Source: an uncultured delta proteobacterium (lineage in GTDB: Bacteria > Desulfobacterota > Binatia > Binatales > Binataceae). From it: DNA of 64,000 nucleotides. Shown here in pieces: positions 3,606 through 64,000 of the stretch. Location of the stretch: NCBI GenBank assembly GCA_963848285.1, contig CAWKCZ010000007.1, positions 361,597 to 425,596 on the forward strand, in the 5' to 3' direction. The notes below the pieces were generated by a model. The model ran no database searches. It had not been told where the DNA came from and saw only the letters and a list, made by a program, of their open reading frames with translations. Each line of letters begins with the position of its first letter. The first letter of the stretch is position 1. The translations under genes and the position numbers were made by a program.

Positions 3606-5034
3606 CTACTGAGCGGCGTCGCCGGCGTTCTTCGCGAGCTGCACCTTGAAGCTGTCCCAGTGATTCAGGATGTCGATGGCCTTCTGTAGCTGGATGTCCT
3701 TTTCTTCCTTGGGCGGCTTGGTCGCGGAGGCTTTGCCGGGCTGCGGATTGCGATCCGCCGCCGGCCGGCACCGGGACCGCTCCTTGTGCTCTGATCGCCG
3801 GTCGGCTTTCGCGTCGGCGCCAGGATGCTGCTTGTTCTGGAAATGTCCGGGCAGATCGCGCTCGTGAATCTCGGGGTTCTCGTCGAGCTGCGCGCCTTCG
3901 CCTTCGAGCGATGCGAGCGTCGGCTTGGGATTGTCGACATCGACATCGGGAGTGATGCCGACCGCCTGGATCGAGCGGCCATTGGGCGTGAAGTAGCGCG
4001 CCGTGGTCAGCCGCAAGGCAGAATGATCATCGAGCGGCAGGATGGTTTGCACCGATCCTTTGCCGAAGGTCTGGGTGCCGACGATGACCGCGCGCTTCTG
4101 ATCCTGCAGCGCGCCCGCGACGATCTCGCTCGCGCTGGCGCTGCCGCCATTGACCAGCACCACCATCGGATAGTCTTCGAAGCCGGTCTTCTTATGCGAG
4201 AAGTATTTCTGCTGCTGATTCTCGTTGCGGCCCTGGGTGTAAACGATCAGGCCGCCGTCGAGGAACTCGTCGGAAACCTTGACCGCCTGATTGAGCAGGC
4301 CACCCGGATTGTCGCGCAGGTCGAGCACCAGGCCCTTCACCTTGCCATGATCCTGCTTCTGGAAATCATCGACGGCCTTTTCGACCGCGTCGTCGGTGCT
4401 CTCCTGGAAGGTGCTGATGCGGACATAGCCGTAGCCGTCCTGGCATGGTCTTGGCCTTGACCGATTGAATCTTGATGACGTCGCGCGCGAGCGTCACGTT
4501 GAACAGCTCGGCCACGCCCGTACGATGCATCGTCAGCTTGATCTTGCTGCCGCGCGGCCCGCGCATCCGCTTGACCGCTTCAGTCAGCGTCATGTCCTTG
4601 GTGAAGTCGTCATTGATCTTGATGATCTGATCGCCGGCCTTCAGCCCCGCCTTGTATGCGGGAGTGTCCTCGATCGGCGAGACGATGGTCAGCACGCCAT
4701 TTTTGATGGTGATTTCGATGCCGAGGCCGCCGAAGCTGCCGCGCGTCTCGACTTCGAGGTCGCGATAGAGCTCGGGCGTCAGGTACGCGCTATGCGGGTC
4801 GAGCGAGGCGAGCATGCCGGTGATCGCGCCGTCGATGAGGCGCTTGGTGGTGACCGGCTCGACGTAGTTCTTCTGCACGATCGCGAGCACATTCGCGAAG
4901 GTTTCGAGCTCCTGGTAGGAGTCGCTGGGGAGCGCCTGCGCGCGCCGCACCGCGACTTCTTCGAGGACCACGAAGCAGGCTATCAGGCAGGCCGCGAGCG
5001 TGATTGCCCATCGATTCTTCTTCATTACTGACAT
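3606..5034 (-). CDS. ctpA: Carboxyl-terminal processing protease (S41, PDZ domain); frameshift near 4340-4440
   Basis: N-terminal part with signal peptide and PDZ (4366..5034) and the S41 catalytic part GLVLDLRDNPGGLL...GSASASEI (3606..4340) are in different frames. Confidence 0.8.
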
Positions 5035-34648: not shown

Positions 34649-35410
34649 TTACTTCGCGCCGAGGAGGTTGGCGAGGCGCGTCAGCTCGGCCGGATCGACA
34701 TCGGAGATCGCCCAGTACGTCATCCCCGAATGCGTCCAGTTCGCGAGGTGATAGCCATGATCGTTGGACCACCGCGGCTGCGGCAATGCGTCATCATCCT
34801 CGCGCGTCGGCCACACAAACACATTGATGATGTGGCGTGACGCTGATACACGAGCGCGGACACCGGCATGCCCGCGGCATAGTCGAGGCGTCCGCCAAGC
34901 AGCTTGAAGCCGTCGCTCGCGAGGTCGTCCACCGGCGGCGCGTAGTCGAGCTTGCCGGTGAACCACGGCTTCACCGTATGCCGATCTTCCGAGGCGACAT
35001 CCGACAGATGATTCGCCATCAGCGAGCGGACGTGGTCGGCGACGATTTCGTTTTCGAGATTGGGCGACGGCCCGCGCCTGCAGCATCCACGCGTTCCATC
35101 CCAGGGTCACGAACAGCGTGAGCGAAGCCGCCATCGCGATACCGCGCCACGGCATCGGACGCGGCAGACGCGCCTGGCGAAAGTCCGGAGGACGGGTGGT
35201 GAGTTGCGCCTCGACCAGTTTTCGCAAGGCTGCCGGCGCGGCGTGGCGCGGCGCCTTGACCAGGACCTCGCTCAGCGCGGAGCGCGCGCCCGAGATGGCG
35301 GAGCATCCCGGGCATTCCTCGAGATGACGCTCCATGGCGGCACTGCGCGGCGCGTCGAGCTCGCCGTCATACCACGCATCGAGGAGGTTTTGAGCTTCGT
35401 CGCAAGTCAC
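34649..35410 (-). CDS. Anti-sigma factor (zinc-finger type) with a C-terminal periplasmic domain; 2 frameshifts
   Basis: [37 protein letters not shown]...; C-terminal pieces ...[47 protein letters not shown] / ...[14 protein letters not shown]...[23 protein letters not shown]. Confidence 0.65.
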
Positions 35411-35961
35411 GTTGATGATCCCATCCGGCGCGTGATGGCGCGGGTCAGATGATCGCGCGCGCGAGCCAGCCGCGACATTACGGTGCCGACCGGCGCGCCG
35501 GTCACCCGCGCAATCTCCTTATAGGATAAATCCTCGAACTCGCGAAGGACAATGACCTCGCGAAATTCGACCGCGAGCTCCTCGAGCGCCTCGGTGACGA
35601 TGCGCGCGTCGGCGCCACGAATCAGCTGCGCTTCGGGACTGGGATGTTCCTGCTCCTGATGCATCTCCTCATCGAATGGAACCGCGCTTTCGGCCGCAAT
35701 ATTCCCCTTGCGCATCGAAAAAAAAGTGTTGCGCACGATCGCGAGCAGCCACGCGCGCGGATTCTGCCCGCTGAAGCTGTCGCCGTACCGCAAGGCGCGC
35801 AGCACGGCTTCCTGCGCGATGTCATCGGCATCGTGATCGTTGCGGCAGAGCCAGCGCGCGAAGTTATGGGCGGCATCGAGATGCGGCAGGACGACCTCGG
35901 CGATGCGCTCGTTGCCGGGGGGCTTGGCAGGCTGCCCGAAAGAATAAATCCGCGCCTTCAT
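35407..35961 (-). CDS. RNA polymerase ECF-type sigma-70 factor; intact
   Basis: ...DIAQEAVLRALRYGDSF...LREFEDLSYKEIARVTGAPVGTVMSRLARARDHL. Its stop overlaps the anti-sigma start (ATGA). Confidence 0.8.
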   Translation of the reverse strand: MKARIYSFGQPAKPPGNERIAEVVLPHLDAAHNFARWLCRNDHDADDIAQEAVLRALRYGDSFSGQNPRAWLLAIVRNTFFSMRKGNIAAESAVPFDEEMHQEQEHPSPEAQLIRGADARIVTEALEELAVEFREVIVLREFEDLSYKEIARVTGAPVGTVMSRLARARDHLTRAITRRMGSST

Positions 35962-36019: not shown

Positions 36020-36195
36020 AAAAAAAGGAGCGAAGCGATCAAGGATTCTAACGGGATGGTAGAACCACCCTCTACAGTTCGGCAGGTCGCACGAAATTTC
36101 GAGCCTTGGTAGCCGGCCGCCAGCGTGACCAGCCGTAGGGGTCGGTTCTACCGACCCGATGGAATCCTGGATCGCGCAGCGGTCATCGTGATTGA
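36020..36195. repeat. Roughly 170-bp imperfect palindromic element, copy 1 (AAAAAAAGGAGCGAAGCGATCAAGGATTCTAACGGGATGGTAGAACCACCCTCTACAGTTCGG ... CCGTAGGGGTCGGTTCTACCGACCCGATGGAATCCTGGATCGCGCAGCGGTCATCGTG)
   Basis: The two arms are inverted repeats (AGGATTC/GAATCCT; GGTAGAACC/GGTTCTACC; CCCTCTACAG/CCGTAGGGG). Copies also at 36602-36750 and 62003-62246. Confidence 0.6.
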
Positions 36196-36236: not shown

Positions 36237-36626
36237 ATGACCCATCGTGAGAAAGTTGATCTACTGACGTCGGAACTCACGGCGAAGGGCGTTAAACAAG
36301 GACTCATTGCGCCGCCCATCTACCGATGGCTGTGGGCGCTCGGATTCGAAACACCACCGCCACTTTTCGGACAATCAGTTGAAGTCGTCTGTCTGATGGG
36401 CGTGCTTGCCGCGGTTGCAATGGGCTCGATCTATTGGCTCACCGGCCTGCCGGACTTTTTCTGGCGAGCGACGCTATTTGGCGGATCAATCGCGGTAACA
36501 ATGGGGTCATTTTTTTATGTCTACTTTCGCTGGAAAGCGAAGCGGCTCGGCCTTCCGGCCTGGGAAGAATATGGGCGCGCCGCAGATGCTCCCGGCTCCA
36601 TAAAAAAGGAGCGAAGCGATCCATGA
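36237..36626 (+). CDS. Small hypothetical membrane protein (3-4 TM); intact; its 3' end is encoded by repeat copy 2
   Basis: MTHREKVDLLTSELTAKGVKQGLIAPPIYRWLWALGFETPPPLFGQSVEVVCLMGVLAAVAMGSIYWLTGLPDFFWRATLFGGSIAVTMGSFFYVYFRW... Confidence 0.4.
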   Translation: MTHREKVDLLTSELTAKGVKQGLIAPPIYRWLWALGFETPPPLFGQSVEVVCLMGVLAAVAMGSIYWLTGLPDFFWRATLFGGSIAVTMGSFFYVYFRWKAKRLGLPAWEEYGRAADAPGSIKKERSDP

Positions 36627-36750
36627 TTCTAACGGGGTGGTAGAACCACCCCCTACAGTTCGAGGGGCGATAGCGAATTTTCGAGATTGGGGCGCTTTGT
36701 ACCTGACCCGTCGGAATCCTCGATCGCGCAGCGTCACTTGGATCGCCGTT
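36602..36750. repeat. Roughly 170-bp palindromic element, copy 2 (about 75% identical to copy 1)
   Basis: AAAAAAGGAGCGAAGCGATCCATGATTCTAACGGGGTGGTAGAACCACCCCCTACAGTTCGAGG ... GACCCGTCGGAATCCTCGATCGCGCAGCGTCAC. Confidence 0.6.
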
Positions 36751-42766: not shown

Positions 42767-43858
42767 CTATTTAGTCTGCGCCTCGATAGTCAGTGGAAGC
42801 TGAAAGCGCAGGGTCTGCGGCGGTTCGCATACGGTGTCGCTGCAGGCCTGGAAGCGCAGGGTACCTTCGATTTTGTATGACCCCGGCTCAATGCGCTTGC
42901 CCAGCGCCTCCATAAATTTTATCGGCGCGGGCGGGCTCCACTTGATGCCGAGCTTGCCGAGGGCGCTAATTTTTCCTTCATACACCGGCAGGGTTTCGCC
43001 CAGCGCCTTGAGGAGCACCGGCTTGGCTGCCGGCATCTCCAGCGATTGCTCGTCCACCAGCGGGCCCTCGAATTTCAGCTCAATAGACTGATAGTTATCA
43101 GGAAGCGGGGTGCCGTAGACATGCCATCCGGGCTGGAGGTTAACCTCCAGCGCGACGCCCAACTCCTGTCCGGGGAAGCATCGATCGGTCGAGAGGCCAA
43201 TGATCGCGGTGAGCACATCGGTTTTGATTTCGAGGGAATTTGGCGCCGCCGCCATCCCGCCCCGGCGCAACGTAAACTGCGTCACCGACGGACGATGCTC
43301 GTAGTTCTCGAGGAATACCTTATCCAGCACAGTGCCATCGGGCGCGAGGAGGAAATCGCCCGGCCACGGCATCCCATACATCATTTTGTGGTCTTCGGGG
43401 ACGTTGGTGTTGAGGATGCCGAATGCGCGGATTACCTTGCTGCCGACATCGGACAGCAGCGGATACTCGATGTGGTTGGCGTCACTGAAACGCTTGAGGA
43501 TTTCCCGCGAATCATAAGTGATCGACGCGACATTGATGCCCTGCGCTTTGAGATTCTTGAGCGAGTATTGCAGCTCGACGAGCTGGTTGCGGCAGTAGGG
43601 TCACCAATCGGCGCTGCGGCTGAAGATGAGCGCGAGCCCGTTTGACCCCATCAAATCCTTGAGCGCAAGCATCCGGCCATTCTGGTCGGGCAGCGCAAAG
43701 TCCGGAACCTTGGCGCCAATCGCGGGACCGGTTTGATAGCCGTGATTCTGCGCCGCGACGAATTCAAGCCAATCATCGGTGGTGATATCGGCGCCGCCCG
43801 CGCCCATGCGAGGAATCATATCGCGAAGTATCGAGGCTCTGGTTTTAGTTTCCATCAC
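42767..43858 (-). CDS. Candidate selenoprotein: Prx/Bcp-like redoxin domain fused to a DsbD-N(alpha)-like domain; in-frame TGA at 43601-43603 inside the redox motif W-U-P-Y-C
   Basis: ORFs 43601..43858 and 42767..43384 are in the same frame, separated only by TGA: ...GAKVPDFALPDQNGRMLALKDLMGSNGLALIFSRSADW-[TGA]-PYCRNQLVELQYSLKNLKAQGINVASITYDSREILKRFSDANHIEYPLLSDVGSKVIRAFGIL...; the C-terminal domain carries QACSDTVCEPP. Hairpin CAGCUCGUCGAGCUG lies 15 nt downstream of the UGA. Confidence 0.55.
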
Positions 43859-48252: not shown

Positions 48253-48768
48253 TCAAGAATATTTCGCCAACGCAGTCGCGGGCAAAACGATCCGGGGGCC
48301 TGCACTCTCGATGGTGTTGAGCAGAATTGCGACGCGTTCGGCACCGGAAAGATAGCGCTCGAAGATCGCTTCGAACCCGCGAAAAGGACCCTCCACCACG
48401 CGCACCGGTTGCCCGCTGTCGAAAGGAACCTCGGCTATCTCTACAACGTCATCGACACCGCGTGCCCGAATCTCCCCGACGATAGCTTCGGGCACCACAA
48501 TCGGATCGGAACCGGCGGAAACCAAACCGGTAACCCCGGCGAGGTACTTGACTTCGAAGTAGCTGGTTTGCAGATCGAGGCGCGCAAACACGTAGCACGG
48601 AAACAGCGGCGCGATAGACATCGCGAGCCGGCCCCAGCGCGGCATCCGCGCCTTCAGCATCGGCAGGAAAACTTCCGACAAGCGGCACGCGAGCTGATCG
48701 CGAACCCATCGCTCCTTGCCGGGTTTGGTGCGGACCAAATACCACGGATCCGAAGACTTCAATGACAT
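48253..48768 (-). CDS. Specialised NusG-paralog transcription antiterminator (NGN plus KOW; UpxY/LoaP/TaA-like); intact
   Basis: ...DPWYLVRTKPGKERWVRDQLACRLSEVFLPMLKARMPRWGR...LFPCYVFARLDL...; C-terminal KOW ...GQPVRVVEGPFRGFEAIFERYLSGAERVAILLNTIE. Confidence 0.65.
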   Translation of the reverse strand: MSLKSSDPWYLVRTKPGKERWVRDQLACRLSEVFLPMLKARMPRWGRLAMSIAPLFPCYVFARLDLQTSYFEVKYLAGVTGLVSAGSDPIVVPEAIVGEIRARGVDDVVEIAEVPFDSGQPVRVVEGPFRGFEAIFERYLSGAERVAILLNTIESAGPRIVLPATALAKYS

Positions 48769-48837
48769 CGGGATTCCTTCTGAGGCACAGAACTAGTTGA
48801 GATTCGGTGTTGAAGCAAAACCAATCGTACAAAACAA

Positions 48838-48866
48838 AGGGCGGCTGCGCAAAAGTCGCAGCCGCC
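48838..48866 (-). terminator. Intrinsic terminator GGGCGGCTGCGCAAAAGTCGCAGCCGCCC followed by a T-run on the minus strand
   Basis: Perfect 11-bp stem; TTTGTTTTG follows on the minus strand. Confidence 0.6.
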
Positions 48867-48891
48867 CGGGTTTGCCGATTATACCAGAAGT

Positions 48892-50842
48892 TTAGATCTC
48901 GTAACTGAGGGTCGCCTCCAGCTCGCTGATGCGCTGGTCGCGGCTGAACAGGAACGGATCCGTGTTGCGTCCGCTGCGGCCCAGGTACCAGATCCCATTC
49001 AGCCCCAACAGGATGTTACGCGAATAGCGGAACACGTTGGTGCTGCCCAGGTTGCCGGTGTTGTCGTCGATGTCCCATGCAAACGCGTTGGTCGACGTCA
49101 ACTGTCCATTGACCAGCCAGTTGGTGCTCGCAAGGAAGAAGAAGTTGCTGAAGCGACGCACCTTGCCGTATGCATTCGCGATGTTCGGAATCGCATGCCC
49201 CGGCAGATCGGGGTACCAGGTCTCGACGAACTGGCCGACCAGGAAGGTGTGCTGCTTGGAAATCCATGGAATGTAGGTCGGACGGTCGCCGGCCAGGATG
49301 AAGCGGCCGAACTCGGTCCACCGTGCTGCCGACTCACCGAGCCGCACGTTACGCGTCACGACCGGAGACGCACTCGGCGTAGGACCACCAGTGGGAGGGC
49401 CTGAAACGTCGATACCGACCTTCGGGGCGTACAGCGTGTCGTAGCGGAACACCATGTCGGTCAGGTCTTTGTCGTAGTAGGTTCCCGTCAAACCGAAGAA
49501 GTGGTTGCGACGGAAATTCTCGCTGGTGTACGGACGAATCGTTCCGAACGGCACCGGGCCTCCCGGAGGCGGTGCACCGAAATCGAACTGCCCGGGCAGC
49601 AGGAATACGCCCGGAAAGGCCTTAATGGTTCCGCCACCGCTTCGGTTGATCGGAGTCGGGCACGACGAGCATAGACCCGCTTTCGAATAGCGCGCCTCGT
49701 AAAGGTAGATGAAGCTTGCCTGCAACCCATTTCCGATCGGCAGCAAACTCGAATAACGGAAACCAAACTCGCTCTTGTCCAGCGTATTACGCGGGGTGTT
49801 CGAGTAGCCGGGTCCGCCTGTCAGACCGGCATTCGGATCAAACTGCGTATAGACATTGGTGGGCGCCGCAGCAGTTCCGAGGTTGGTGATACTCGATGGG
49901 AACTGTCCCAGATCCGCGAAGGTCTGGTGCCGATAGGGCTGCCCAAGGCGGTTGTATTGAATGAGCGGTCCGACCGGCGCTCGCACCATCCACGGGTTGC
50001 GCGCGTCGTTTAGCTGAACGACCGCAGTGTCACCCTGATAGTCGCCCGGAATGACGAAAGCCTCGGCCTCGTTGTTCGCAGTCTTCAGGAAGTCCGGCAG
50101 GATGTAGTTGAACTTCAACATCCTGACGTTCTTGCGCAGATTTTCTGCGGTCTCGAAATGGGTCCAGTGAAAGGTCAGGTCGTTTGGGTTGGTAATTTCA
50201 GTTCCCGACAACGCATCAGCTTCCGACCAGATGACCTGCTGCTTGCCGACACGGGCGGAAAAGTTGTCGCTGAAATTTAGCTGCCCGTAGTACTCGCGCA
50301 GGTCGTTGCGGAAGTACTCCTCCTGGATCTCCTGCTGCGTATACACCTTCCAGTCGCGTCGCGGTCTGGGCGACGCCCTCGCGCTTGATGGTCCCCAATG
50401 CGTTGTACCAGGGACGATAGAATGCAAAGAAATCCGCATCCTTAAGAATCAGTGTGTCGAGGCGGCCGAGGAACTTGTAGTTCTTGACCATATGGTAATC
50501 GGGTCGGACGTCGGCCAGTTGCCGCATCTGCACCAGGTCCCAATGGTTGAAATCGAAGCTCCCGCCGGTTTCCGTCGGTGCGCGTCCGGGATTGGTCTGA
50601 ATTGATCCCACCCCTGCTACCGGCGGTGTGAAGGTCGCAGGACTTCCGGTCCCGGACTTGGCACTGCCCTCGCCCCATCGACCGGACTCCCGGGTTTCGA
50701 AGAATCCGAACACCGAAAAGTCGCCTTGCGTAATCGTTGCGTTCGCCGCGGAGGTCCACAGCGTCGCGACCCCGGCGCATGCGGCGATCAACAGATTTCG
50801 CCAGCGCGCACCGCGACCAACACCCAACTTGTTCTTCACCAT
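48892..50842 (-). CDS. Large secreted / outer-membrane beta-barrel protein (about 640 aa, DUF1302-like), copy 1; one frameshift near 50330-50440
   Basis: Signal peptide MVKNKLGVGRGARWRNLLIAACAGVATLWTSAANA; Gly/Asn/aromatic-rich amphipathic strands ...RYSRNILLGLNGIWYLGRSG...ATLSYEI*. Confidence 0.55.
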
Positions 50843-51211
50843 ATGCTCCCCAAAGCTGACTGCTTCTTCCGGAGGTCAGCTATTTGCCGAATCGGCCCAG
50901 CCTGCGTTTCCACCCGAGTTAACCAAAATTAAGGGCCTCAGTAACATACCTAATTGTTAAGTGTCAATGCTGTCATAAGATAAACTATTGGAAAGACGCT
51001 GAAATCGTTGTACTCGACCGCACCTCAAGGACCCTGAGTCAGAACACCTTTGGCATCTCACAGGCAAGAACGATGCTAAAATGCTCTATATAACACCGCA
51101 AATGATGAAGTTCGCTGCCAAGCAATGCCTAAACCTGCTTGGCAGTGCATATCCAGCCGCATCGCGCCCATGGCGAACGAACCTAAATTAGATCCGGACT
51201 TAATATAAGCT

Positions 51212-52174
51212 TTGCAACTGAGTTGCTTCAGTATTGCTTATTTTATAGAAATGCTCATGTCGGGTGGGGAATTCGACATGGAATCTGCGCAGCAAAAATA
51301 TCGGCCAAGTTCCAGGGAATATAAAGTTAGGGATTTGGTCCTGCTGGAACTGAGGCGAAGTGGTTATCCGCTAAGCGAGATCGCCAGCTTGCTAGGTTTC
51401 TCACGACAGCGCGCCGCTCAAATCTACCGTCGCCTGGTCCACGAGGCCTCCGTTAACGAGGAGCCTTCAATCGCTCAAGGACGCGCTACCGGAGGCTCAT
51501 CGGAGCGTGCGTCCATCCATACGGTATCGACGGATGATTTTTCCGAACGCCTTGATCGTCTTAACCAGCATTTCGAATCGCGCGTCCAGCGCGTCTTGAA
51601 GCATCTTTACAAGCGTCAACTTCTCAACGTTCGGCGCAATTACATTTCTACTACGATGTTCTCGAGAGTATGGCCGTATATTGAACGCTATCAGGGAAAG
51701 CCGTTTACCTTCTCGCAGCTCGTGGCCGATCACGCGGAATTGATCGAGGAAAAGCATCTGCCGCAGTTTTTGTCTCGGCTTCGCCGCAACGGCGTGCTTG
51801 CGAATGCCGGATGCTTGCGCTTTCCCGGTCACAACCTTCCCGAGGTCGTCATGGTGGAGCGTCCTCGCGAAGAAACCTGCTCCCGATTTCTTGAGCCGCT
51901 TTTTGTGCGCTGGAGTCACGAGCTCCGCCGCTTGGAGACGAGATACAGAATCAGAGACGGCCAATCGCTAAGGCGAGAGCTATTGGCGGTCATCAGGGAC
52001 TTTGGGCTTTCCGAAGTTGATTTGGATGCGGTTCTGCGGGGCCGGCAAACGCTCGATATCAGGCCTCCGATCGAGATTGCGCAAAAGGATGATGCACGCA
52101 AAGTGCGCACCCCATCGGCTTTTTCTACCGCTCTTGAAGCCGACCAGTCTTTGCCCTTCCCCTCAACAACTTAA
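51212..52174 (+). CDS. Hypothetical regulator: N-terminal sigma-70 region-4-like HTH (LVLLELRRSGYPLSEIASLLGFSRQRAAQIYRRL) plus an unknown roughly 250-aa domain; intact; markedly AT-richer
   Basis: Intact 320-aa ORF (alternative start MESAQQ at 51278) in the spacer between the two OMP repeats; AT-rich upstream region 50900-51210. Confidence 0.45.
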   Translation: MQLSCFSIAYFIEMLMSGGEFDMESAQQKYRPSSREYKVRDLVLLELRRSGYPLSEIASLLGFSRQRAAQIYRRLVHEASVNEEPSIAQGRATGGSSERASIHTVSTDDFSERLDRLNQHFESRVQRVLKHLYKRQLLNVRRNYISTTMFSRVWPYIERYQGKPFTFSQLVADHAELIEEKHLPQFLSRLRRNGVLANAGCLRFPGHNLPEVVMVERPREETCSRFLEPLFVRWSHELRRLETRYRIRDGQSLRRELLAVIRDFGLSEVDLDAVLRGRQTLDIRPPIEIAQKDDARKVRTPSAFSTALEADQSLPFPSTT

Positions 52175-52199
52175 GCGGCGCTTTCGACATAAAAGAAAA

Positions 52200-52228
52200 G
52201 GGCGGCTGCGCAAAAGTCGCAGCCGCCC
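52200..52228 (-). terminator. Intrinsic terminator GGGCGGCTGCGCAAAAGTCGCAGCCGCCC (duplicate)
   Basis: Same hairpin; CTTTTCTTTT follows on the minus strand. Confidence 0.6.
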
Positions 52229-52252
52229 GGTTTTGCTGATTATACCGGAAGT

Positions 52253-54170
52253 TTAGATCTCGTAACTGAGGGTCGCCTCCAGCTCGCTGATGCGCTGGTC
52301 GCGGCTGAACAGGAACGGATCCGTGTTGCGTCCGCTGCGGCCCAGGTACCAGATCCCATTCAGCCCCAACAGGATGTTACGCGAATAGCGGAACACGTTG
52401 GTGCTGCCCAGGTTGCCGGTGTTGTCGTCGATGTCCCATGCAAACGCGTTGGTCGACGTCAACTGTCCATTGACCAGCCAGTTGGTGCTCGCAAGGAAGA
52501 AGAAGTTGCTGAAGCGACGCACCTTGCCGTATGCATTCGCGATGTTCGGAATCGCATGCCCCGGCAGATCGGGGTACCAGGTCTCGACGAACTGGCCGAC
52601 CAGGAAGGTGTGCTGCTTGGAAATCCATGGAATGTAGGTCGGACGGTCGCCGGCCAGGATGAAGCGGCCGAACTCGGTCCACCGTGCTGCCGACTCACCG
52701 AGCCGCACGTTACGCGTCACGACCGGAGACGCACTCGGCGTAGGACCGCCAGTGGGCGGACCTGAAACGTTGATACCGACCTTCGGGGCGTACAGCGTGT
52801 CGTAGCGGAACACCATGTCGGTCAGGTCTTTGTCGTAGTAGGTTCCCGTCAAACCGAAGAAGTGGTTGCGACGGAAATTCTCGCTGGTGTACGGACGAAT
52901 CGTTCCGAACGGCACCGGGCCTCCCGGAGGCGGTGCACCGAAATCGAACTGCCCGGGCAGCAGGAATACGCCCGGAAAGGCCTTAATGGTTCCGCCACCG
53001 CTTCGGTTGATCGGAGTCGGGCACGACGAGCATAGACCCGCTTTCGAATAGCGCGCCTCGTAAAGGTAGATGAAGCTTGCCTGCAACCCATTTCCGATCG
53101 GCAGCAAACTCGAATAACGGAAACCAAACTCACTCTTGTCCAGCGTGTTGCGCGGAGTGTTCGAATATCCCGCTCCACCGGTTAAACCACCACTGGGATC
53201 AAACTGCGTATAGACATTGGTGGGCGCCGCAGCAGTTCCGAGGTTGGTGATACTCGATGGGAACTGTCCCAGATCCGCGAAGGTCTGATGCCGATAGGGC
53301 TGCCCAAGGCGGTTGTATTGAATGAGCGGTCCGACCGGCGCTCGCACCATCCACGGGTTGCGAGCGTCGTTTAGCTGAACGACCGCAGTGTCACCCTGGT
53401 AATCGCCCGGAATGACGAAAGCCTCGGCCTCGTTGTTCGCGGTCTTCAGGAAGTCCGGCAGGATGTAGTTGAACTTCAACATCCTGACGTTCTTGCGCAG
53501 ATTTTCCGCGGTCTCGAAATGAGTCCAATGAAAGCTCAGATCGTTCGGGTTGGTAATTTCAGTTCCCGACAACGCATCAGCTTCCGACCAGATGACCTGC
53601 TGCTTGCCGACACGGGCGGAAAAGTTGTCGCTGAAATTTAGCTGCCCGTAGTACTCGCGCAGGTCGTTGCGGAAATACTCCTCCTGGATCTCCTGCTGCG
53701 TATACACCTTCCAGTCGCGTGCGGTCTGCGCGACGCCCTCGCGCTTGAGGGTCCCCAACGCGTTGTACCAGGGACGATAGAACGCAAAGAAATCCGCGTC
53801 CTTAAGAATCAGTGTGTCGAGGCGGCCGAGGAACTTGTAGTTCTTGACCATGTGGTAGTCGGGCCGGACGTCGGCCAGTTGCCGCATCTGCACCAGGTCC
53901 CAATGGTTGAAATCGAAGCTCCCGCCGGTTTCCGTCGGTGCGCGTCCGGGATTGGTCTGGATTGATCCCGACCCCCGGTACCGGCGGTGTGAAGGTCGCA
54001 GGACTTCCGGTCCCGGACTTGGCACTGCCCTCGCCCCATCGACCGGACTCCCGGGTTTCAAAGAATCCGAACACCGAAAAGTCGCCCTGTGTGATCGTTG
54101 CGTTCGCTGCGGAGGTCCACAGCGTCGCGACCCCGGCGCATGCGGCGATCAACAGATTTCGCCAGCGCAC
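52253..54170 (-). CDS. Large outer-membrane beta-barrel protein, copy 2; one frameshift near 53940-54060, at a different place from copy 1
   Basis: ORF 52253..54061 (602 aa, intact through the region broken in copy 1) plus the N-terminal signal-peptide segment 53802..54170. Confidence 0.55.
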
Positions 54171-54574
54171 ACCGCGACCAACATTCCAATTTGTTCTTCA
54201 CCATATGCTCCCCAAAGCTGACTGCTTCTTCCGGAGGTCAGCTATTTTGCCCCGACCCGAACAATACTGTTTGTCGCACCTATTCCATTACGGGCACGTT
54301 AACGCGGCCTAGGTAGCATCTTGCCGAAGAGGTTGTCAAGCAGGCGTCCCGAAACGAGACATCGCGCGATGCCCTTGTAAAATCGGGCAGTTAGGCGCAT
54401 GCGCGGCGCCAAATCAGGTCACCATGCGGGTTTCGAGCTTGAGAGAAGACGAATTCAAACACCACGCGCGGGCGGCTGGCAGCAAATTTTCTCGATCGTG
54501 CCGGACCACGGGTGCGCGCCCATGAGTCTGAGTAACTCTCAAATACGCGCGGGCTTATGGATGCCGAACAGGAT

Positions 54575-55165
54575 CTAGGCGCTCTCCGGAGTCAGGTCCT
54601 CGGCGAGCGACTTCGCGAGGTCTCCTCCGATGCGACCCTCGGCGCCGAGGTTGGGATGGTCGGCCTGAATGGCGATTTTCCCGTCCCTCGCAAGGGTCAG
54701 AAATGCATCAGGGTCCATTGCGACTTCGAAGCGCACGAACTGCACCGAACTGACGCGCTCCGGCGACATCTGCCGCTCGTCGAATTTGAGTGGAACTTTG
54801 CGATCGCCAAGCTTCAGCGACAGATGCTTCTCGACGCCGACCAGCCGCCGCAACGCCGCATCGCGCTCCTTGGCTTCGGCGAACTCAATCAGCAGCGTCG
54901 CCGAGATCTCGCCTCGCGCGGGGATCAACTCATTGTAGGTATCGATCTCATGCTGGATGGCGGCATCATCCTTGAGTTGCTCGGAGCGAATCATCTCTTC
55001 GACCTGGTACCAAAGCGTCGCGGTGTTTTCGAAGAGAAACGTCAGATGCGATCCAACCGCGAGCCGACGGCGTTCCTTCTCATGGATGAAGAGCGGGCGC
55101 AGCACCGGCCGCACCTTTTGCCATTGCTCGAGGCTGAGGATTTCGTTCTTGGTGATCTTCTTCAT
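54575..55165 (-). CDS. DUF3501-family protein; intact
   Basis: MKKITKNEILSLEQWQKVRPVLRPLFIHEKERRRLAVGSHLTFLFEN...; co-occurs with HdrD-like FeS proteins. Confidence 0.55.
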   Translation of the reverse strand: MKKITKNEILSLEQWQKVRPVLRPLFIHEKERRRLAVGSHLTFLFENTATLWYQVEEMIRSEQLKDDAAIQHEIDTYNELIPARGEISATLLIEFAEAKERDAALRRLVGVEKHLSLKLGDRKVPLKFDERQMSPERVSSVQFVRFEVAMDPDAFLTLARDGKIAIQADHPNLGAEGRIGGDLAKSLAEDLTPESA

Positions 55166-56507
55166 TTGGATTCCTCCGCAGCCTCAGGAGGCGGAACTTT
55201 GTCGGGAAAGCCGCCCTCGTCGTACGCAGCCGCAAGCACTTCGAGCGGATGCACCGGATGCACTCCCGTCGCCTGCTCGATCTGAATCGCCGAGAGCGGG
55301 CAATCGGTCGTCATCAAATTCGCGTCGGCGTCGCGCATGCCGTTGAATGCCTTCGCGCCCCATTTCATCGAGAGCTCGAAGTACTCCTTCTTCATCGCCC
55401 AGATGCCGTCGTGCGCGGTGCACGCATCGACGCTGACGACCTCGGCGCCGGGAATCGTGCGCATCATGTCGCGCGAGCGAAAGCCAATCTGCTGCGCCTT
55501 CAGATGACATGGGATGTGGTAGGCGACCTTGCCCGGCGTGGTGCGAAAATCGCGATTAAACTTGCCGTCGCGCTTGAGCTGGAACAGCAGCTCGTTCGGA
55601 TCGACCACGGCCGCGGCGAATTCCTTCACCTCATCGCCGGGAAGCAGCAGCGGATACTCGCGCCGCATCGTCAGCGAGCAGGTCGGATTGATCGCCGCGA
55701 TTTTGAATCCGCGGCGCACGTACGGCAGCATCGAATCGATGTTGGCGCGCGCCTGCTTCTGCGCGAAATCGACATCGCCGCCGTCGAGCGCCGGCATCCC
55801 GCAGCAGTTCTGCTTCGGGCATGCGATCTCGCATCCATTCTTTTCGAGCACCTTGACCGCGGCCTTGCCCGGCGCGGTGTCGTAATAATTGATGAAGCAG
55901 GTCGGGAATAGCACGACCTTCGCGGTCGGATTCGTGGGCGGCTTCGGCAGGTTGTCGCGCAGCCATTTGTCGAGCGTCTGATCGGCAAACTCGGGAAGCT
56001 TCTTGTCGCGATGAATCCCGAGCAGCTTCTCCATCAGCGCGCGATTGAGCGTGTTGCGGCATCCGAAGTTCGCGAGCCCCGGCAGCAGGCTGCCGAGCTT
56101 CCCGAGGCGATCGGGATTCGAGAGCATCTTGTCGCGGAACTCGACGCCCTTCTCTTTCGCCGTGACCGCCTTGTCGCGCTGCATCAGACGCGGGAAATCG
56201 AGCTGGAACTCGTGACCATCACCGGGAGTGTACGGACATCGCACCTCGCACATCTTGCACAGGTAGCAGAGGTCGACGACGTTGCGTTTCTCATCAGCAG
56301 TGAGCTTGACGAACGTCGCCGTCGTTGCGGTCGACCGCATCGAACAGCGCCGGGAACGAAGGGCACAAATTGAAGCACAGCCGGCATCCGTGGCAGATGT
56401 CGAACACGCGGGTGACTTCCTTGTCGAGGCCCTCGCGGCTCCAGTACTTCGGTTCAGTCGATGTTGTAGGTAAGCCCGTCGGTCGGCTGCGACGAAATGC
56501 GGCTCAT
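55162..56507 (-). CDS. Heterodisulfide-reductase-related (Fe-S)-binding protein (2x C-x2-C-x2-C-x3-CP plus CCG domains; GlpC/HdrD-like); N-terminal frameshifts
   Basis: MSRISSQPTDGLTYNID / ...VFDICHGCRLCFNLCPSFPALFDAVD / ...DLCYLCKMCEVRCPYTPGDGHEF...FPTCFINYY...CCGMP... Confidence 0.7.
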
Positions 56508-57089: not shown

Positions 57090-57602
57090 CTAAGCCGACT
57101 TATGGCCCGCGGCGGCCTTGGCTCTGCGCGGACGATTTTTCTCAACGCATTCGGCACAGAGCGCCTGGATTTCCAGCGAGCTGCCGAGCAGCTTGAAATC
57201 GCCGATCGCCGCGCGCCCGCGCAGCACCTGCTCCAGCTCGGGGATCTCGATATCGCGCACCCGCCGGCACTTGACGCATACCACGTGATGATGCGGCGTC
57301 AGGTTGCCGTCGTAGCGCGCGCTGTCATGCAGCGTCGTGACCTTGCGCGCCTCGCCAATCTCGCACAGCGTCTCCAGCGTGCGATGCACCGTCGCGAGCG
57401 AAATATGCGGATGCTCGCGGCGTACGATTTCGCATACCGTATCGGCGCGCGGATGCTCGGCCGACGTCAGCAGAGCCTTGATGATCGCGAGCCGCTGCGG
57501 CGTCACCGCGAGGCCGCCCTTGCGGCATCGCTCGGCAAACTCCGCGAGCCGCCCGGCGGCATACCCAGCCCGCCGCCCCTCATTGATCAACTTTAGTTCC
57601 AT
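57090..57602 (-). CDS. Fur-family regulator, PerR-like; intact
   Basis: ...LAVTPQRLAIIKALLTSAEHPRADTVCEIVRREHPHISLATVHRTLETLCEIGEARKV...HHHVVCVKC...CAEC. Confidence 0.75.
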   Translation of the reverse strand: MELKLINEGRRAGYAAGRLAEFAERCRKGGLAVTPQRLAIIKALLTSAEHPRADTVCEIVRREHPHISLATVHRTLETLCEIGEARKVTTLHDSARYDGNLTPHHHVVCVKCRRVRDIEIPELEQVLRGRAAIGDFKLLGSSLEIQALCAECVEKNRPRRAKAAAGHKSA

Positions 57603-59371: not shown

Positions 59372-60621
59372 CTAATTCCTCCGCACGTTGCGGAAGGGGC
59401 CGGTGTCGAAGCGCGGCTCCTTCGGCAACTCCATCACCCGCTCCGCGATGATGTTGCGCTGAATCTCGTCGGTGCCGCCCGCGATCGATACCGCCGGCAC
59501 CGATACGAGGATCTCCGCGATGATGCCCTCGCGCGGGCTCTCCGGTCCGGTCAGCATCGCCTCGGTGCCGGTCATCATCGTATGCACTCGGGCGCAGGCC
59601 CGCGCGACGTGGCTGGCTGCCAGCTTTCCGAGCGAGCCTTCGGGACCTTGCGGACGGCCCTGCTGCTGGGCGGCGCGCGCGCGACGCGCGGTCCATTCGG
59701 CCGACTTCGCCATGATCATCAGCTTGGCGATTTCCTGCCGGATGTGCGGGATCCTCGTTCGCGCCGGTTTCCTTCGCGCGCTCGAGGATGAGGTCCACTC
59801 GCCGGCGCGCTGCGGATACCATCTGTAGGGCTCGTTGGCCTTTTCGTTTTCGGCGCGCTCCTCGGCGTGAATGTGTCCCTGGCGCGATGCCGCGCTTTGA
59901 TGGAGTCGCGAGGCCGTCGGCGCCGCGGCGCTCATGCGCGAGCGTCGTCATCGCGACCTTCCATCCGTCGCCGACCTTGCCGACGAGATTTTCCGCCGGC
60001 ACTTTCGCATCGGTGAAGAAGACCTGGTTGAACGATGCGTGGCCGTTCATCTGCTTGAGCGGCTGCACATCGACGCCGGGCTGCTTCACGTCGATCACAA
60101 AGTACGACATCCCCTCATGCTTGGGCGCGTCCCAATCGGTGCGCGCGAGCAGACAGGCCGTGGTCGGCATGATGCGCGCTGGTGGTCCAGACTTTCTGTC
60201 CGTTGACGATCCAGAAATCGCCGTTCAAATCCGCGCTGGTGGTCGCGCCCGCGAGGTCGGAGCCGCTGCCGGGCTCGCTGAAGAACTGGCACCAGGTGTC
60301 TTCGCCGGTCAGGATGCGGCGCAGGAACTTTTTCTTCTGCGCATCGCTGCCATGTTCGAGCAGCGTCGCGGCCGCCAGATGGCGCACGCCCGACCGCGCG
60401 GCGCTCACTGCGCCGACGTTGGCAAATTCCTCCTCGACCACGCGCGCGAGCGATGACGGCAACCCACGCCCGTACCATTCCTTGGGCCACTGCGGCGCGC
60501 CCCATCCCGGAATCGGCAAGCTTGCTGCGCCATTCCAGCAGCGACATGTCGGGATCCCAGTTGGCCGCGAGCCATGTCGCGAACTTCGGCGCGCACTTCG
60601 GCTTCGGCTGACGTTACTCAT
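59372..60621 (-). CDS. Acyl-CoA dehydrogenase (1 of a tandem pair); frameshifted
   Basis: ...QFFSEPGSGSDLAGATTSADLNGDFWIVNGQKVWTTSAHHAD / ...LLARTDWDAPKHEGMSYFVIDVKQPGVDVQPLKQMNGHASFNQVFFTDAKVPAENLVG / ...GGTDEIQRNIIAERVMELPKE... Confidence 0.7.
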
Positions 60622-60624
60622 CGC

Positions 60625-61803
60625 TCAAACTCCCCATCGCTGCATCAACAGCTCGCGATGATAACTCGGTTGGCCGAGGAAAACCTCGGAACTCTTGGCG
60701 CGCTTGAACCACAGATGCGTATCGTTGTCCCAGGTGAAGCCGATGCCGCCATGAAGCTGAATGGTTTCGATCGCGGTCTGCAGATAGGTCTCCGACGCCG
60801 ATGGCCTTGGCGAGGCTGGCCAGCGCCGGCCACTCCGGGTCATCGACCGCGGCTGCCTGCGCGGCGTAGTAGGCGGCGGACTTCGCGAGCTCCACATCGA
60901 GCAGCATATCGGCGAGCTTATGCTTGATGGCCTGGAAGGAGCCGATCGTGCGTCCGAACTGGACCCGCAGCTTCGAGTAATCACCGCCGAATCGAGCAGC
61001 GCTGCGCACCGCCCACCATCTCATTGGCGAGCGCGATGGCGGCCTGATCCATCGTGCGGACTGGATCGCGTTCCGCCCGTCATCGCAGATTGCCGAGCAG
61101 ATGCGCGTGGGCGCCACGAAATCGATGCGCGCGATCTTGCGCGTCGGATCCATCGACGGCGAGCGGGCTTCGCTCGACGCCCGCGGCGTTCGCCTCGAGG
61201 GTGAACAGACCCGAAGCCCTCGCGACCGCTCGCCGGGGCACGCGCGCGGCGACGACCAGCAAATCGGCGATGTGACCATCGACGACGTAGCTCTTGGCTC
61301 CGTCGAGGCGGAAGCCATGACCGTCAGTGGTGGCGACGGTCTCGATGCTGCGCCGGATCCCAATTGCCGTTCGGTTCGGTGATCGCGAGCGTCGCGAGTC
61401 GCGCGCCGCTGGCGATGTCCGGCAGCAGGCTCGCTTTCTGCGCCTCGGTGCCCGCGTTCAGGATCGCGTTCGCGGCGAGCACCGAGGTGGAAAAATACGG
61501 TGCGCACAAACCAGCGCGCGGCCGAACTCCTCCATCACGATGCCGAGCTCGACCATGCCGAATCCCGCGCCGCCGTATTGCTCCGGAATATGGATGCCGG
61601 GGAGCGCGAGTTCCTCGCTCATCTGGCGCCACACTGCGGGATCGTAGCCCTCGGCGGTGGCCATCAGGCGTCGGACCTCGGTGGTGGGCGATTTGTCAGT
61701 GAGAAATCGCCGAATGCGCCGAGCGGAACTGCTCCTGCTCATCGGTAAATGCGAACTGGATGCGATGGGCGGGATCGGTTTTCGATTTTTGGGTTGCGCT
61801 CAT
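60625..61803 (-). CDS. Acyl-CoA dehydrogenase (2 of the pair); frameshifted
   Basis: MSATQKSK.../...EELALPGIHIPEQYGGAGFGMVELGIVMEEFGRAL / ...YFSTSVLAANAILNAGTEAQKASLLPDIASGARLATLAITEP / ...QFGRTIGSFQAIKHKLADMLLDVELAKSAAYYAA / ...IQLHGGIGFTWDNDTHLWFKRAKSSEVFLG... Confidence 0.7.
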
Positions 61804-62002
61804 CGGGATAAAACTGCCTTTGTAGCGGGCCTTCGATGCCCGCGTTAGCGATCATCATCTGAATAGCAACGATCGATTGACGACGTAAACCGCAGCAGGT
61901 TTGACTCGTCGATGGCGTCGCCGGAACGGTTCTTGGAAACCGCGCGCATTGATCCATGGCCATCGCCGGTGGAACGCCTCAATTTCGCGTGTGGAATTGA
62001 GG

Positions 62003-63342: not shown

Positions 63343-64000
63343 CGCCTTCAGCTCTGCGGCCAAATCCGCGGGTCGCCGTCTTGCCCTGATCGATAGCGGC
63401 CTGCAGGCTGAAGAAGCCATGCACCACGCCGTCGTAGCGTTTCACGTCGACTTTGTTGCCGGCCTGCTTGAGCGCCTCGGCGTATGCCTCGCCCTCATCG
63501 CGCAAGCGGATCATGCGAGGCGGTGATGATATGCGCGGGAGGCAGATTTTTCAGGTCCTTGGCGCGGATCGGCGACGCGTACGGATTCTCGCCGTCCTTC
63601 GATCCTTCGAGAGTAGTGGCCCCAGAACCACACCATGTCGGCCTTCGAGAGCACGAAGCCGTCGGCGGTGAATTCCTGGTGCGACGGCGTATCCATCGCG
63701 GCGTCGGTCACCGGGTAGATCAGCATCTGATGGCGAATGCGTGGGCCGCCGCGGTCGCGCGCCATCAGCGCGATTGCCGCCGCGAGGTTGCCTCCGGCGC
63801 TGTCGCCGCCGACCGCGATATGGTCCGCGTCGCTGCCGAGCGAGGCCGCGTTCTTCGCCACCCATTGCGTCGCCGCATAGCAGTCCTCGGGCGCGGCAGG
63901 AAATTTTGCTTCCGGCGCGAGGCGATAATCGACCGCCACCACTGTACATCCGGTCTCGTTGGTCAACGCGCGGCACACGTAGTCATGGCTTTCGAGGTCG
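63343..64000 (-). CDS. Alpha/beta-hydrolase-fold esterase/lipase (HSL family); frameshifted; runs off the window end
   Basis: ...VVAVDYRLAPEAKFP...HIAVGGDSAGGNLAAAIALMARDRG / ...[36 protein letters not shown]... Confidence 0.65.

Follow-up and report, generated by a model that had tools for sequence, protein, structure and literature searches.

Two near-identical outer-membrane protein genes in tandem in an uncultured Binataceae bacterium are probably paralogs kept alike by gene conversion

The DNA considered here, called the window, is a stretch of 64,000 nucleotides (nt) from an uncultured delta proteobacterium of the Binataceae (assembly GCA_963848285.1, contig CAWKCZ010000007.1, positions 361,597 to 425,596). 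It contains a locus at which two near-identical copies of a gene for a predicted outer-membrane protein (OMP) flank a gene for a helix-turn-helix (HTH) protein. In our view the repeats are probably two genuine, functional paralogs that stand at one tandem locus and are kept alike by gene conversion.

When the window was compared with itself by BLASTN, a single long direct repeat was found, 48836-50888 against 52197-54251 (copies A and B). The alignment of the two copies has 2056 columns and 97.18% identity, with 54 mismatches and four 1-nt gaps (E = 0), and the distance from start to start is 3361 nt. Each repeat is a complete minus-strand unit that comprises a 46-nt leader, a 649-codon OMP gene and a terminator. 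The features of the locus are as follows:

48836-50888, minus strand: repeat copy A, an OMP unit whose 3′ flank is the NusG-paralog side
52197-54251, minus strand: repeat copy B, an OMP unit whose 5′ flank is the DUF3501 side
48892-50842, minus strand: OMP coding sequence (CDS) of copy A, 649 codons once an extra C at 50360 is dropped
52253-54204, minus strand: OMP CDS of copy B, 649 codons without the additional bases at 53970 (G) and 54184 (T)
50843-50888 (copy A) and 54205-54251 (copy B), minus strand: 5′ leader of 46 nt, starting ...ATAGC
48839-48867, minus strand: intrinsic terminator of copy A, with an 11-bp stem, a 7-nt loop and the tail TTTGTTTTGT
52200-52228: terminator hairpin of copy B, with the tail TTTTCTTTTA, terminator-like on both strands
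50889-51253: divergent intergenic region of unique sequence between OMP copy A and the HTH gene
51254-52174, plus strand: HTH partner gene (about 300 aa) in the 1.3-kb spacer
48253-48768, minus strand: NusG paralog (RfaH/UpxY-like, below family cut-offs), directly downstream of copy A
54575-55165, minus strand: DUF3501 gene, directly upstream of copy B

An earlier note on this DNA had described near-identical direct repeats of 2.05 kb, each an outer-membrane-type gene equipped with a terminator and a leader of its own, around a spacer whose HTH gene lies on the opposite (plus) strand. That description stands, and its coordinates were right to within 1-2 bases. The terminator hairpin and the 5′ leader are present in both copies, and the shared part of the leaders reaches ...GGAGGTCAGCTATTT(T)GCC, as had been claimed.

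The two OMP copies are each other's nearest relatives in all five two-copy genomes of the window's clade. Within these genomes the copies are 97.4, 99.3, 94.7, 96.4 and 90.9% identical at the nucleotide level, as against 69-88% between copies of different genomes, whatever the locus type. The closest complete relative, MFD04944.bin.1.36 (referred to below as R; a 4.34-Mb contig), carries its two copies about 808 kb apart. Copy 1 of R lies in the order FUR-rubrerythrin-CCG-DUF3501-OMP-NusG-p183, an arrangement that shares synteny with the window locus on both of its outer flanks, and copy 2 adjoins an HTH gene. The R copies are 98.9% identical over the gene plus approximately 50 nt upstream and 60 nt downstream, and the identity of each to the window copies is only about 75%. 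The genomes CAWFBH, CAWAMM and CAVXGH each have one DUF3501-side copy and one HTH-linked copy as well. In these four relatives the two copies are far apart, unlike the tandem in the window, and the homology within each genome is limited to the gene with flanks of about 50-117 nt on the upstream side and about 55-68 nt on the downstream side.

The surroundings of the copies are shared between genomes. The DUF3501/NusG locus is syntenic in the window, R, CAWFBH and about 50 other genomes, and its conserved left flank is FUR-rubrerythrin-CCG-DUF3501. The upstream flank of copy B is orthologous to the upstream flank of two loci of relatives (L002 and L009), and the downstream flank of copy A is orthologous to the downstream flank of the same two loci. 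HTH-linked copies occur in five of the five clade genomes, in differing contexts. The loci thus appear to be orthologous between genomes, so the duplication would be older than the species splits.

Third codon positions account for 41 of the 51 CDS differences between the window copies (80%). Synonymous and nonsynonymous divergence (dS and dN) are 0.097 and 0.006, respectively (dN/dS 0.063), which shows that both copies are under purifying selection. The differences are also clustered: the longest identical run, at the 3′ end, extends over 496 nt, and 16 differences fall within 64 nt of the hypervariable loop region, where the unconverted patches sit. Neither the longest run nor the gap variance (7131) was reached in any of 5000 permutations that kept the codon-position composition (p < 0.0002). 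The clustering argues for a conversion mosaic rather than uniform divergence after a recent duplication. The signs expected of gene conversion are all present, namely paralogs that are more similar than orthologs, shared locus flanks and mosaic differences.

We suggest that RecA-type gene conversion would repeatedly overwrite one copy with the other across the leader, CDS and terminator. Such a process would keep the copies 91-99% alike within a genome while the gene drifts to 69-88% between genomes. Each copy retains its own upstream promoter region, so that near-identical proteins could be placed under different control, and copy A has its AT-rich divergent control region in common with the HTH gene.

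Two considerations weigh against this reading. First, the signal is mixed in a second Binataceae clade, where the pairs are 93.5, 87.8, 85.4 and 80.9% identical and where a copy of the last pair groups with copies of other genomes. Conversion is thus episodic, and a contribution of allele exchange between lineages is possible. Second, the similarity of copies within metagenome-assembled genomes (MAGs) built from long reads could be partly inflated by cross-mapping during polishing. However, short-read MAGs have the same within-genome trend (87-89%), which counts against this caveat.

Concerted evolution of this kind is well known, and only the protein family and the host are new here. tufA and tufB are duplicated bacterial genes that evolve in concert by gene conversion. 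A further example is the bab/sab/hop family of outer-membrane paralogs in Helicobacter pylori, in which duplicated genes evolve in concert by conversion (PMC6053082, PMC4552749). As in both of these systems, the paralogs of the Binataceae lie at different loci and resemble one another within a genome more than orthologs from different genomes do, their differences are mosaic, and homology stops at the gene, the flanks and promoters being different. The likeness to bab/sab/hop extends to what is predicted to be a surface-exposed protein with hypervariable loops. Unlike the known cases, the protein belongs to another family and the host is an uncultured soil member of the Binataceae; the window copies are adjacent and direct, so that deletion and amplification are possible besides conversion; and the case for conversion is drawn from sequence comparison.

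The alternative that survives best is a recent, lineage-specific tandem duplication with no ongoing conversion, in which youth alone would explain the likeness of the copies. New paralogs arise most often by tandem duplication, and the direct orientation and 97% identity would fit such an event. However, the five two-copy genomes would then need about five independent recent events to similar places. The homology limits are similar in all five genomes even though the loci are distant in four of them, the differences between the window copies are distributed non-uniformly, with a long identical run beside a dense cluster, and the spacer is unique and lies outside any duplicated block. We therefore consider a recent duplication unlikely, and prefer an old paralog pair, homogenised by conversion and not necessarily recent in origin, a reading that the earlier note had missed.

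The repeats had also been proposed as substrates for homologous recombination, which is plausible. A single crossover between the window copies would delete the HTH gene together with one OMP copy and leave DUF3501-OMP-NusG, which is the layout present in R and CAWFBH (loci L009 and L007); unequal exchange would amplify the unit. The locus resembles known cases of RecA-dependent deletion and amplification at direct repeats in that 2-kb repeats of 97% identity flank a 1.3-kb unique segment, and in that the predicted deletion product equals the layout of relatives. It differs from them in that it is known from its layout in the sequence. There are two possible scenarios for its origin: an HTH-OMP module may have been inserted beside a resident copy, or the tandem may be the older state, from which the relatives derived theirs by deletion and relocation.

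A contig from a second sample bears on several of these questions. The contig (L003; sample ERZ25039463, 3341 bp) aligns to window positions 48837-52185, which is exactly one repeat period; it begins at the first base of the repeat and stops 11 nt before the next copy. This extent is what is expected from an assembly graph in which the unique spacer is looped between collapsed repeats. L003 offers independent support for the tandem layout from a second sample; it is compatible with a loop in the assembly graph and is no proof of excision. It is also a mosaic. Its terminator, spacer and HTH gene are of the window type (97-100%), and its leader and CDS are 99.4% identical to the HTH-linked copy of R. 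The junctions between the types are at ATAGC and at the stop codon, that is, at the extreme edges of the sequence that can be aligned between the window and R, with only 5-6 nt in common for a crossover, and the leader resembles a blend of the two types. L003 could reflect a recent cross-species allele replacement or a polishing artefact. We give more weight to the artefact, because the edge junctions and the blended leader fit a low-coverage short contig that was overwritten by reads of an abundant R-like strain.

The mosaic raises an alternative in which the unit is an exchangeable cassette with fixed ends (ATAGC on one side and the stop codon/terminator on the other) that moves by a mechanism other than plain homologous recombination. 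Besides the window-type flanks and R-type leader and CDS of L003, this would be consistent with an OMP tree that is discordant with the flanks, the flanks being nearest to loci L039 and L067 and the OMP nearest to R, and with the occurrence of the OMP-HTH module in varied contexts and orientations. Yet the upstream limit of homology varies by genome between -47 and -117 nt, which speaks against fixed ends, and the L003 junctions coincide with the edges of the window-R alignable sequence, as expected of a polishing artefact. No recombinase or transposase genes and no terminal repeats were found nearby, and the unit itself has no terminal inverted repeats that would mark a mobile element. A fixed-end cassette is thus improbable. 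It is likewise doubtful that the leader and CDS act as a swappable surface-protein cassette that is also replaced wholesale between Binataceae species. If they did, phages or predators that target the exposed barrel might drive the swapping, under the control of the HTH protein and the RfaH-like NusG paralog, and a real cross-species swap in L003 would imply strong diversifying pressure on a surface protein in soil bacteria.

A different reading, in which both copies are real pseudogenes of a decaying redundant pair, possibly with on/off variation of a surface protein, is suggested by frameshifts in both copies. Frameshifts were called relative to the reading frame common to 25 aligned homologues. 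The claim of exactly one in each copy was not borne out, and a special meaning of the frameshifts is not supported either: copy A contains a single frameshift and copy B a pair, of which one had been missed (54184), and all three are 1-nt insertions at background density that are not specific to the repeats. As assembled, the CDS of copy A consists of two open reading frames (ORFs), 48892-50439 and 50216-50842. The insertions, and the genes elsewhere in the window that are broken by insertions or deletions (indels), are:

50360, minus strand: 1-nt insertion, extra C, in copy A, in the context GCGAC-GCGAC
53970, minus strand: 1-nt insertion, extra G, in copy B, within or beside a C5 run
54184, minus strand: 1-nt insertion, extra T, in copy B, at codon 7
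59372-61810, 56309-56463, 41834, 63504-63611 and 4366-4493: genes broken by single-base indels (two acyl-CoA dehydrogenases, the CCG protein, an epimerase, a carboxylesterase and a Ctp peptidase)

Indels occur in the OMP genes at 0.77 per kb (3 in 3.9 kb), much as in the background, where roughly 10 frame changes in approximately 11 kb correspond to about 0.9 per kb. A scan for frame switches by codon usage was too noisy, and the background was instead obtained by tblastn and DNA alignment to R. In tblastn comparisons of R proteins with the window, at least 10 frame changes were found in 5 of the 15 neighbouring genes, the other 10 being intact: at least 2 in a carboxylesterase gene, at least 3 in each of two acyl-CoA dehydrogenase genes, 1 in CCG and 1 in an epimerase gene. 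When the DNA was aligned to R, one dehydrogenase gene had 7 single-base indels and the other 12-13, whereas CCG had 3 and the epimerase gene 1. A Ctp peptidase gene elsewhere in the window is likewise split. The indels of the window are mostly insertions, lie outside homopolymers and are clustered in some genes and absent from others, and the neighbouring genes that bear them are as similar to R as the intact neighbours, or more so.

We conclude that the frameshifts are most likely long-read consensus errors and not pseudogenisation, because their density matches that of the neighbours and the assemblies are Nanopore-only. According to their record titles, related assemblies were made from Nanopore reads only, with Flye and one round of Medaka, and this procedure has been described for related genomes (PMC12313526). 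None of the three OMP indels is in a long homopolymer, where classical Nanopore errors typically lie, and this speaks the other way; the other indels of the window are also outside homopolymers, however, so this context is not distinctive. Decay into pseudogenes could also draw on the NusG-side copy of R, which is split as well (574 + 80 aa). Against it, dN/dS is far from relaxed and indicates purifying selection on both copies, neither copy has an in-frame stop, the disruptions do not exceed those of neighbouring metabolic genes that are conserved like the intact ones, and none of the three sites is in a simple-sequence tract of the kind that supports phase variation. Pseudogenes are accordingly quite improbable. 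What looked like striking near-identical repeats with frameshifts thus appears to resolve into assembly noise and a pair of paralogs subject to gene conversion; the case is chiefly of practical value, and its biological interest is modest. The quality of the assembly is uneven, split genes are to be expected in this Nanopore-only MAG, and readings that are based on ORFs need care.

The same assembly raises the question of whether the second copy was created by assembly. The possibility that only one true copy stands here, or that the HTH-linked copy belongs elsewhere and was mis-joined, is favoured by the error-prone assembly, by the reputation of repeats as classic mis-join sites and by a break of synteny exactly at the repeat end in loci L039 and L067. 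In these loci (at about 12024 in CAVXGH and about 12017 in CAWAMM, respectively) synteny stops precisely where the OMP unit ends on its 3′ side, with no NusG paralog behind it; the ends are either rearrangement breakpoints at the repeat or mis-joins in the MAGs. We regard the tandem OMP-HTH-OMP layout as real, on the following grounds. Both outer flanks of the relatives' single-copy locus are retained, the 5′ one by copy B and the 3′ one by copy A, and a mis-join through the repeat would run on into another locus and would not return to the original one after 1.3 kb. The layout needs real OMP sequence on either side of the HTH gene, the 54 differences between the copies are mostly synonymous, L003 ends at the same boundaries in another sample, and Nanopore reads are typically longer than a 2-kb repeat. 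Assembly collapse or chimerism, which had been raised as a possible source of the two copies, is therefore very unlikely. An RNA-mediated (retro-type) duplication, considered since the unit roughly equals a transcript, was rejected because promoter-like TTGACA boxes lie about 95 nt upstream of the boundary and the repeat starts inside the putative 5′ untranslated region.

Once corrected, copies A and B encode two 649-aa proteins with 9 residue differences. By inspection, the N-terminus (MVKNKLGVGRGARWRNLLIAACAGVATLWTSAANA, followed by T) combines a basic n-region with a hydrophobic core and an AxA site (ANA, with cleavage before the T), and is predicted to be a typical Sec signal peptide. There are hundreds of full-length homologues with 50-78% identity, nearly all of them from metagenome genomes of Candidatus Binataceae/Binatia. 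No Pfam or NCBIfam match to the corrected protein was found by hmmscan, and a sequence search of the PDB gave no relative. An AlphaFold2 model from a 26-sequence alignment is rich in beta structure and of low confidence (predicted local distance difference test, pLDDT, 53). Its Foldseek matches in the PDB are exclusively outer-membrane barrels (OmpC/F/K36, FadL, OprB) at E values of about 1e-5 and template modelling (TM) scores of at most 0.39; because of the low confidence of the model, these matches back the general class only.

The protein may fairly be called a predicted outer-membrane beta-barrel with a remote likeness to DUF1302. That it belongs to DUF1302 is not established: none of 26 family members (the window protein with 25 homologues) matches PF06980 at E <= 1, and the window protein does not reach the gathering score of that family. 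Precomputed PF06980 marks are present on 6 of 120 listed homologues, and the JGI annotation calls one homologue DUF1302; the precomputed marks are probably faint matches. DUF1302 proteins are 18-strand barrels with no solved structure and are often encoded beside DUF1329 and a LuxR-type regulator (PMC13499233; bioRxiv 10.1101/2020.07.04.188060), as in the outer-membrane pair PP_0765-PP_0767 of Pseudomonas with its adjacent LuxR-type regulator (same sources). The window locus is like the Pseudomonas pair in having a predicted outer-membrane beta-barrel protein of about 600-650 aa with a signal peptide, a neighbour of the LuxR/sigma-70 region-4 HTH class and a possible role in the uptake or processing of hydrophobic substrates. 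It is unlike the pair in the lack of the PF06980 match, in an HTH protein whose C-terminal domain is unrelated and uncharacterised, and in the lack of a DUF1329 partner, none of which adjoins the OMP copies; the immediate neighbours are the DUF3501 gene, the HTH gene and the NusG paralog.

Possible starts of the HTH gene are TTG 51212, ATG 51254 and ATG 51278, of which 51254 or 51278 is probably used, and the gene ends at 52174. Its product is 39% identical to a 310-aa protein that is encoded convergent to the OMP gene in a related genome, and a search for homologues gave 5 proteins only. An alignment of nine family members covers an N-terminal HTH (...LREIAxLLGITRQRVSQIERR...) and, at the C-terminal end, a conserved domain of about 170 aa. 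For the window protein, the matches to Sigma70_r4 (E = 0.022) and to HTH_23 (E = 0.0025) fall short of the cut-offs; at relaxed E values Sigma70_r4 is matched by nine of nine family members (best 1.1e-7), and a profile of the family finds sigma-factor region 4 in the PDB at E = 0.002-0.2. The spacer gene thus appears to encode a sigma-70 region-4/LuxR-class HTH protein with an uncharacterised second domain.

The HTH protein is a putative regulator that probably acts on OMP copy A. A divergent arrangement is the usual layout of a regulator and its target. The 365-nt region between the two genes is AT-rich, with a GC content of 0.44-0.49 compared to 0.61 for the window, and contains a TTGACA box upstream of copy A. 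On the other side the HTH gene is convergent to copy B. The hairpin of both copies reads GGGCGGCTGCG-ACTTTTG-CGCAGCCGCCC on the minus strand and is followed by a T-run; 10 of its 11 stem pairs are GC and it lies 25 nt past the stop codon, as expected of a rho-independent terminator. The copy B hairpin scores on the plus strand too, so it could serve the convergent HTH gene and may be a shared terminator.

The 5′ leader of copy A contains an inverted repeat, AGCTGAC/GTCAGCT (50875-50881 and 50854-50860), and the Shine-Dalgarno sequence GGGGAG (50846-50851). The leader of the OMP family is kept across the Binataceae, with …GGCTTGGGGGTGnnT-ATG following a hairpin-forming sequence (70 nt upstream of the start, loci L006-L083), and in the window's clade the stem has one compensatory change (AGCTGAC/GTCAGCT compared to AGCCGAC/GTCGGCT). 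Folding statistics do not support the hairpin (z = -1.2) and the minimum-free-energy fold chooses another pairing. Neither the window nor the leader has a match to an Rfam family. We do not claim the leader as an RNA element, because the fold is not significant and the compensatory change is single.

A scan of GTDB species-representative genomes, which did not bring up the window's own genome, gave 78 OMP loci, and in 53 of these a NusG paralog lies 80-300 nt downstream of the OMP gene. This suggests that the specialised antiterminator and the OMP locus are functionally linked, in an association conserved across the Binataceae. The OMP family, although uncharacterised, is now defined as one that is widespread in the Binataceae, usually followed by an RfaH-like NusG paralog and often present in two copies that evolve in concert, and in one Binataceae clade it is tied to a novel HTH protein. 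We also note that a small protein of about 190 aa and of no known family follows the NusG paralog across Binataceae OMP loci, and that the FUR-family gene of the window (57090-57602) has a 66-nt in-frame deletion at 57166 relative to its ortholog in R.

Apart from the OMP pair, the 64-kb window has one other match to itself, which is 61 nt long. This direct repeat (36021-36081 and 36602-36662, 581 nt apart, 93% identity) adjoins an ECF-sigma-like gene at 35407-35961, a label given by reading the translation with no profile scan. Finally, an ORF on the minus strand (42767-43720) has an in-frame TGA at 43601-43603, at the first cysteine position of an AhpC/TSA-like redox motif. A hairpin, CAGCTC-GTC-GAGCTG, is located 16 nt after the TGA, with a fold that is not statistically distinctive (z = 0.4). 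The motif reads W-TGA-P-Y-C where CxxC is expected, and the TGA is a candidate selenocysteine codon with a selenocysteine insertion sequence (SECIS) element.

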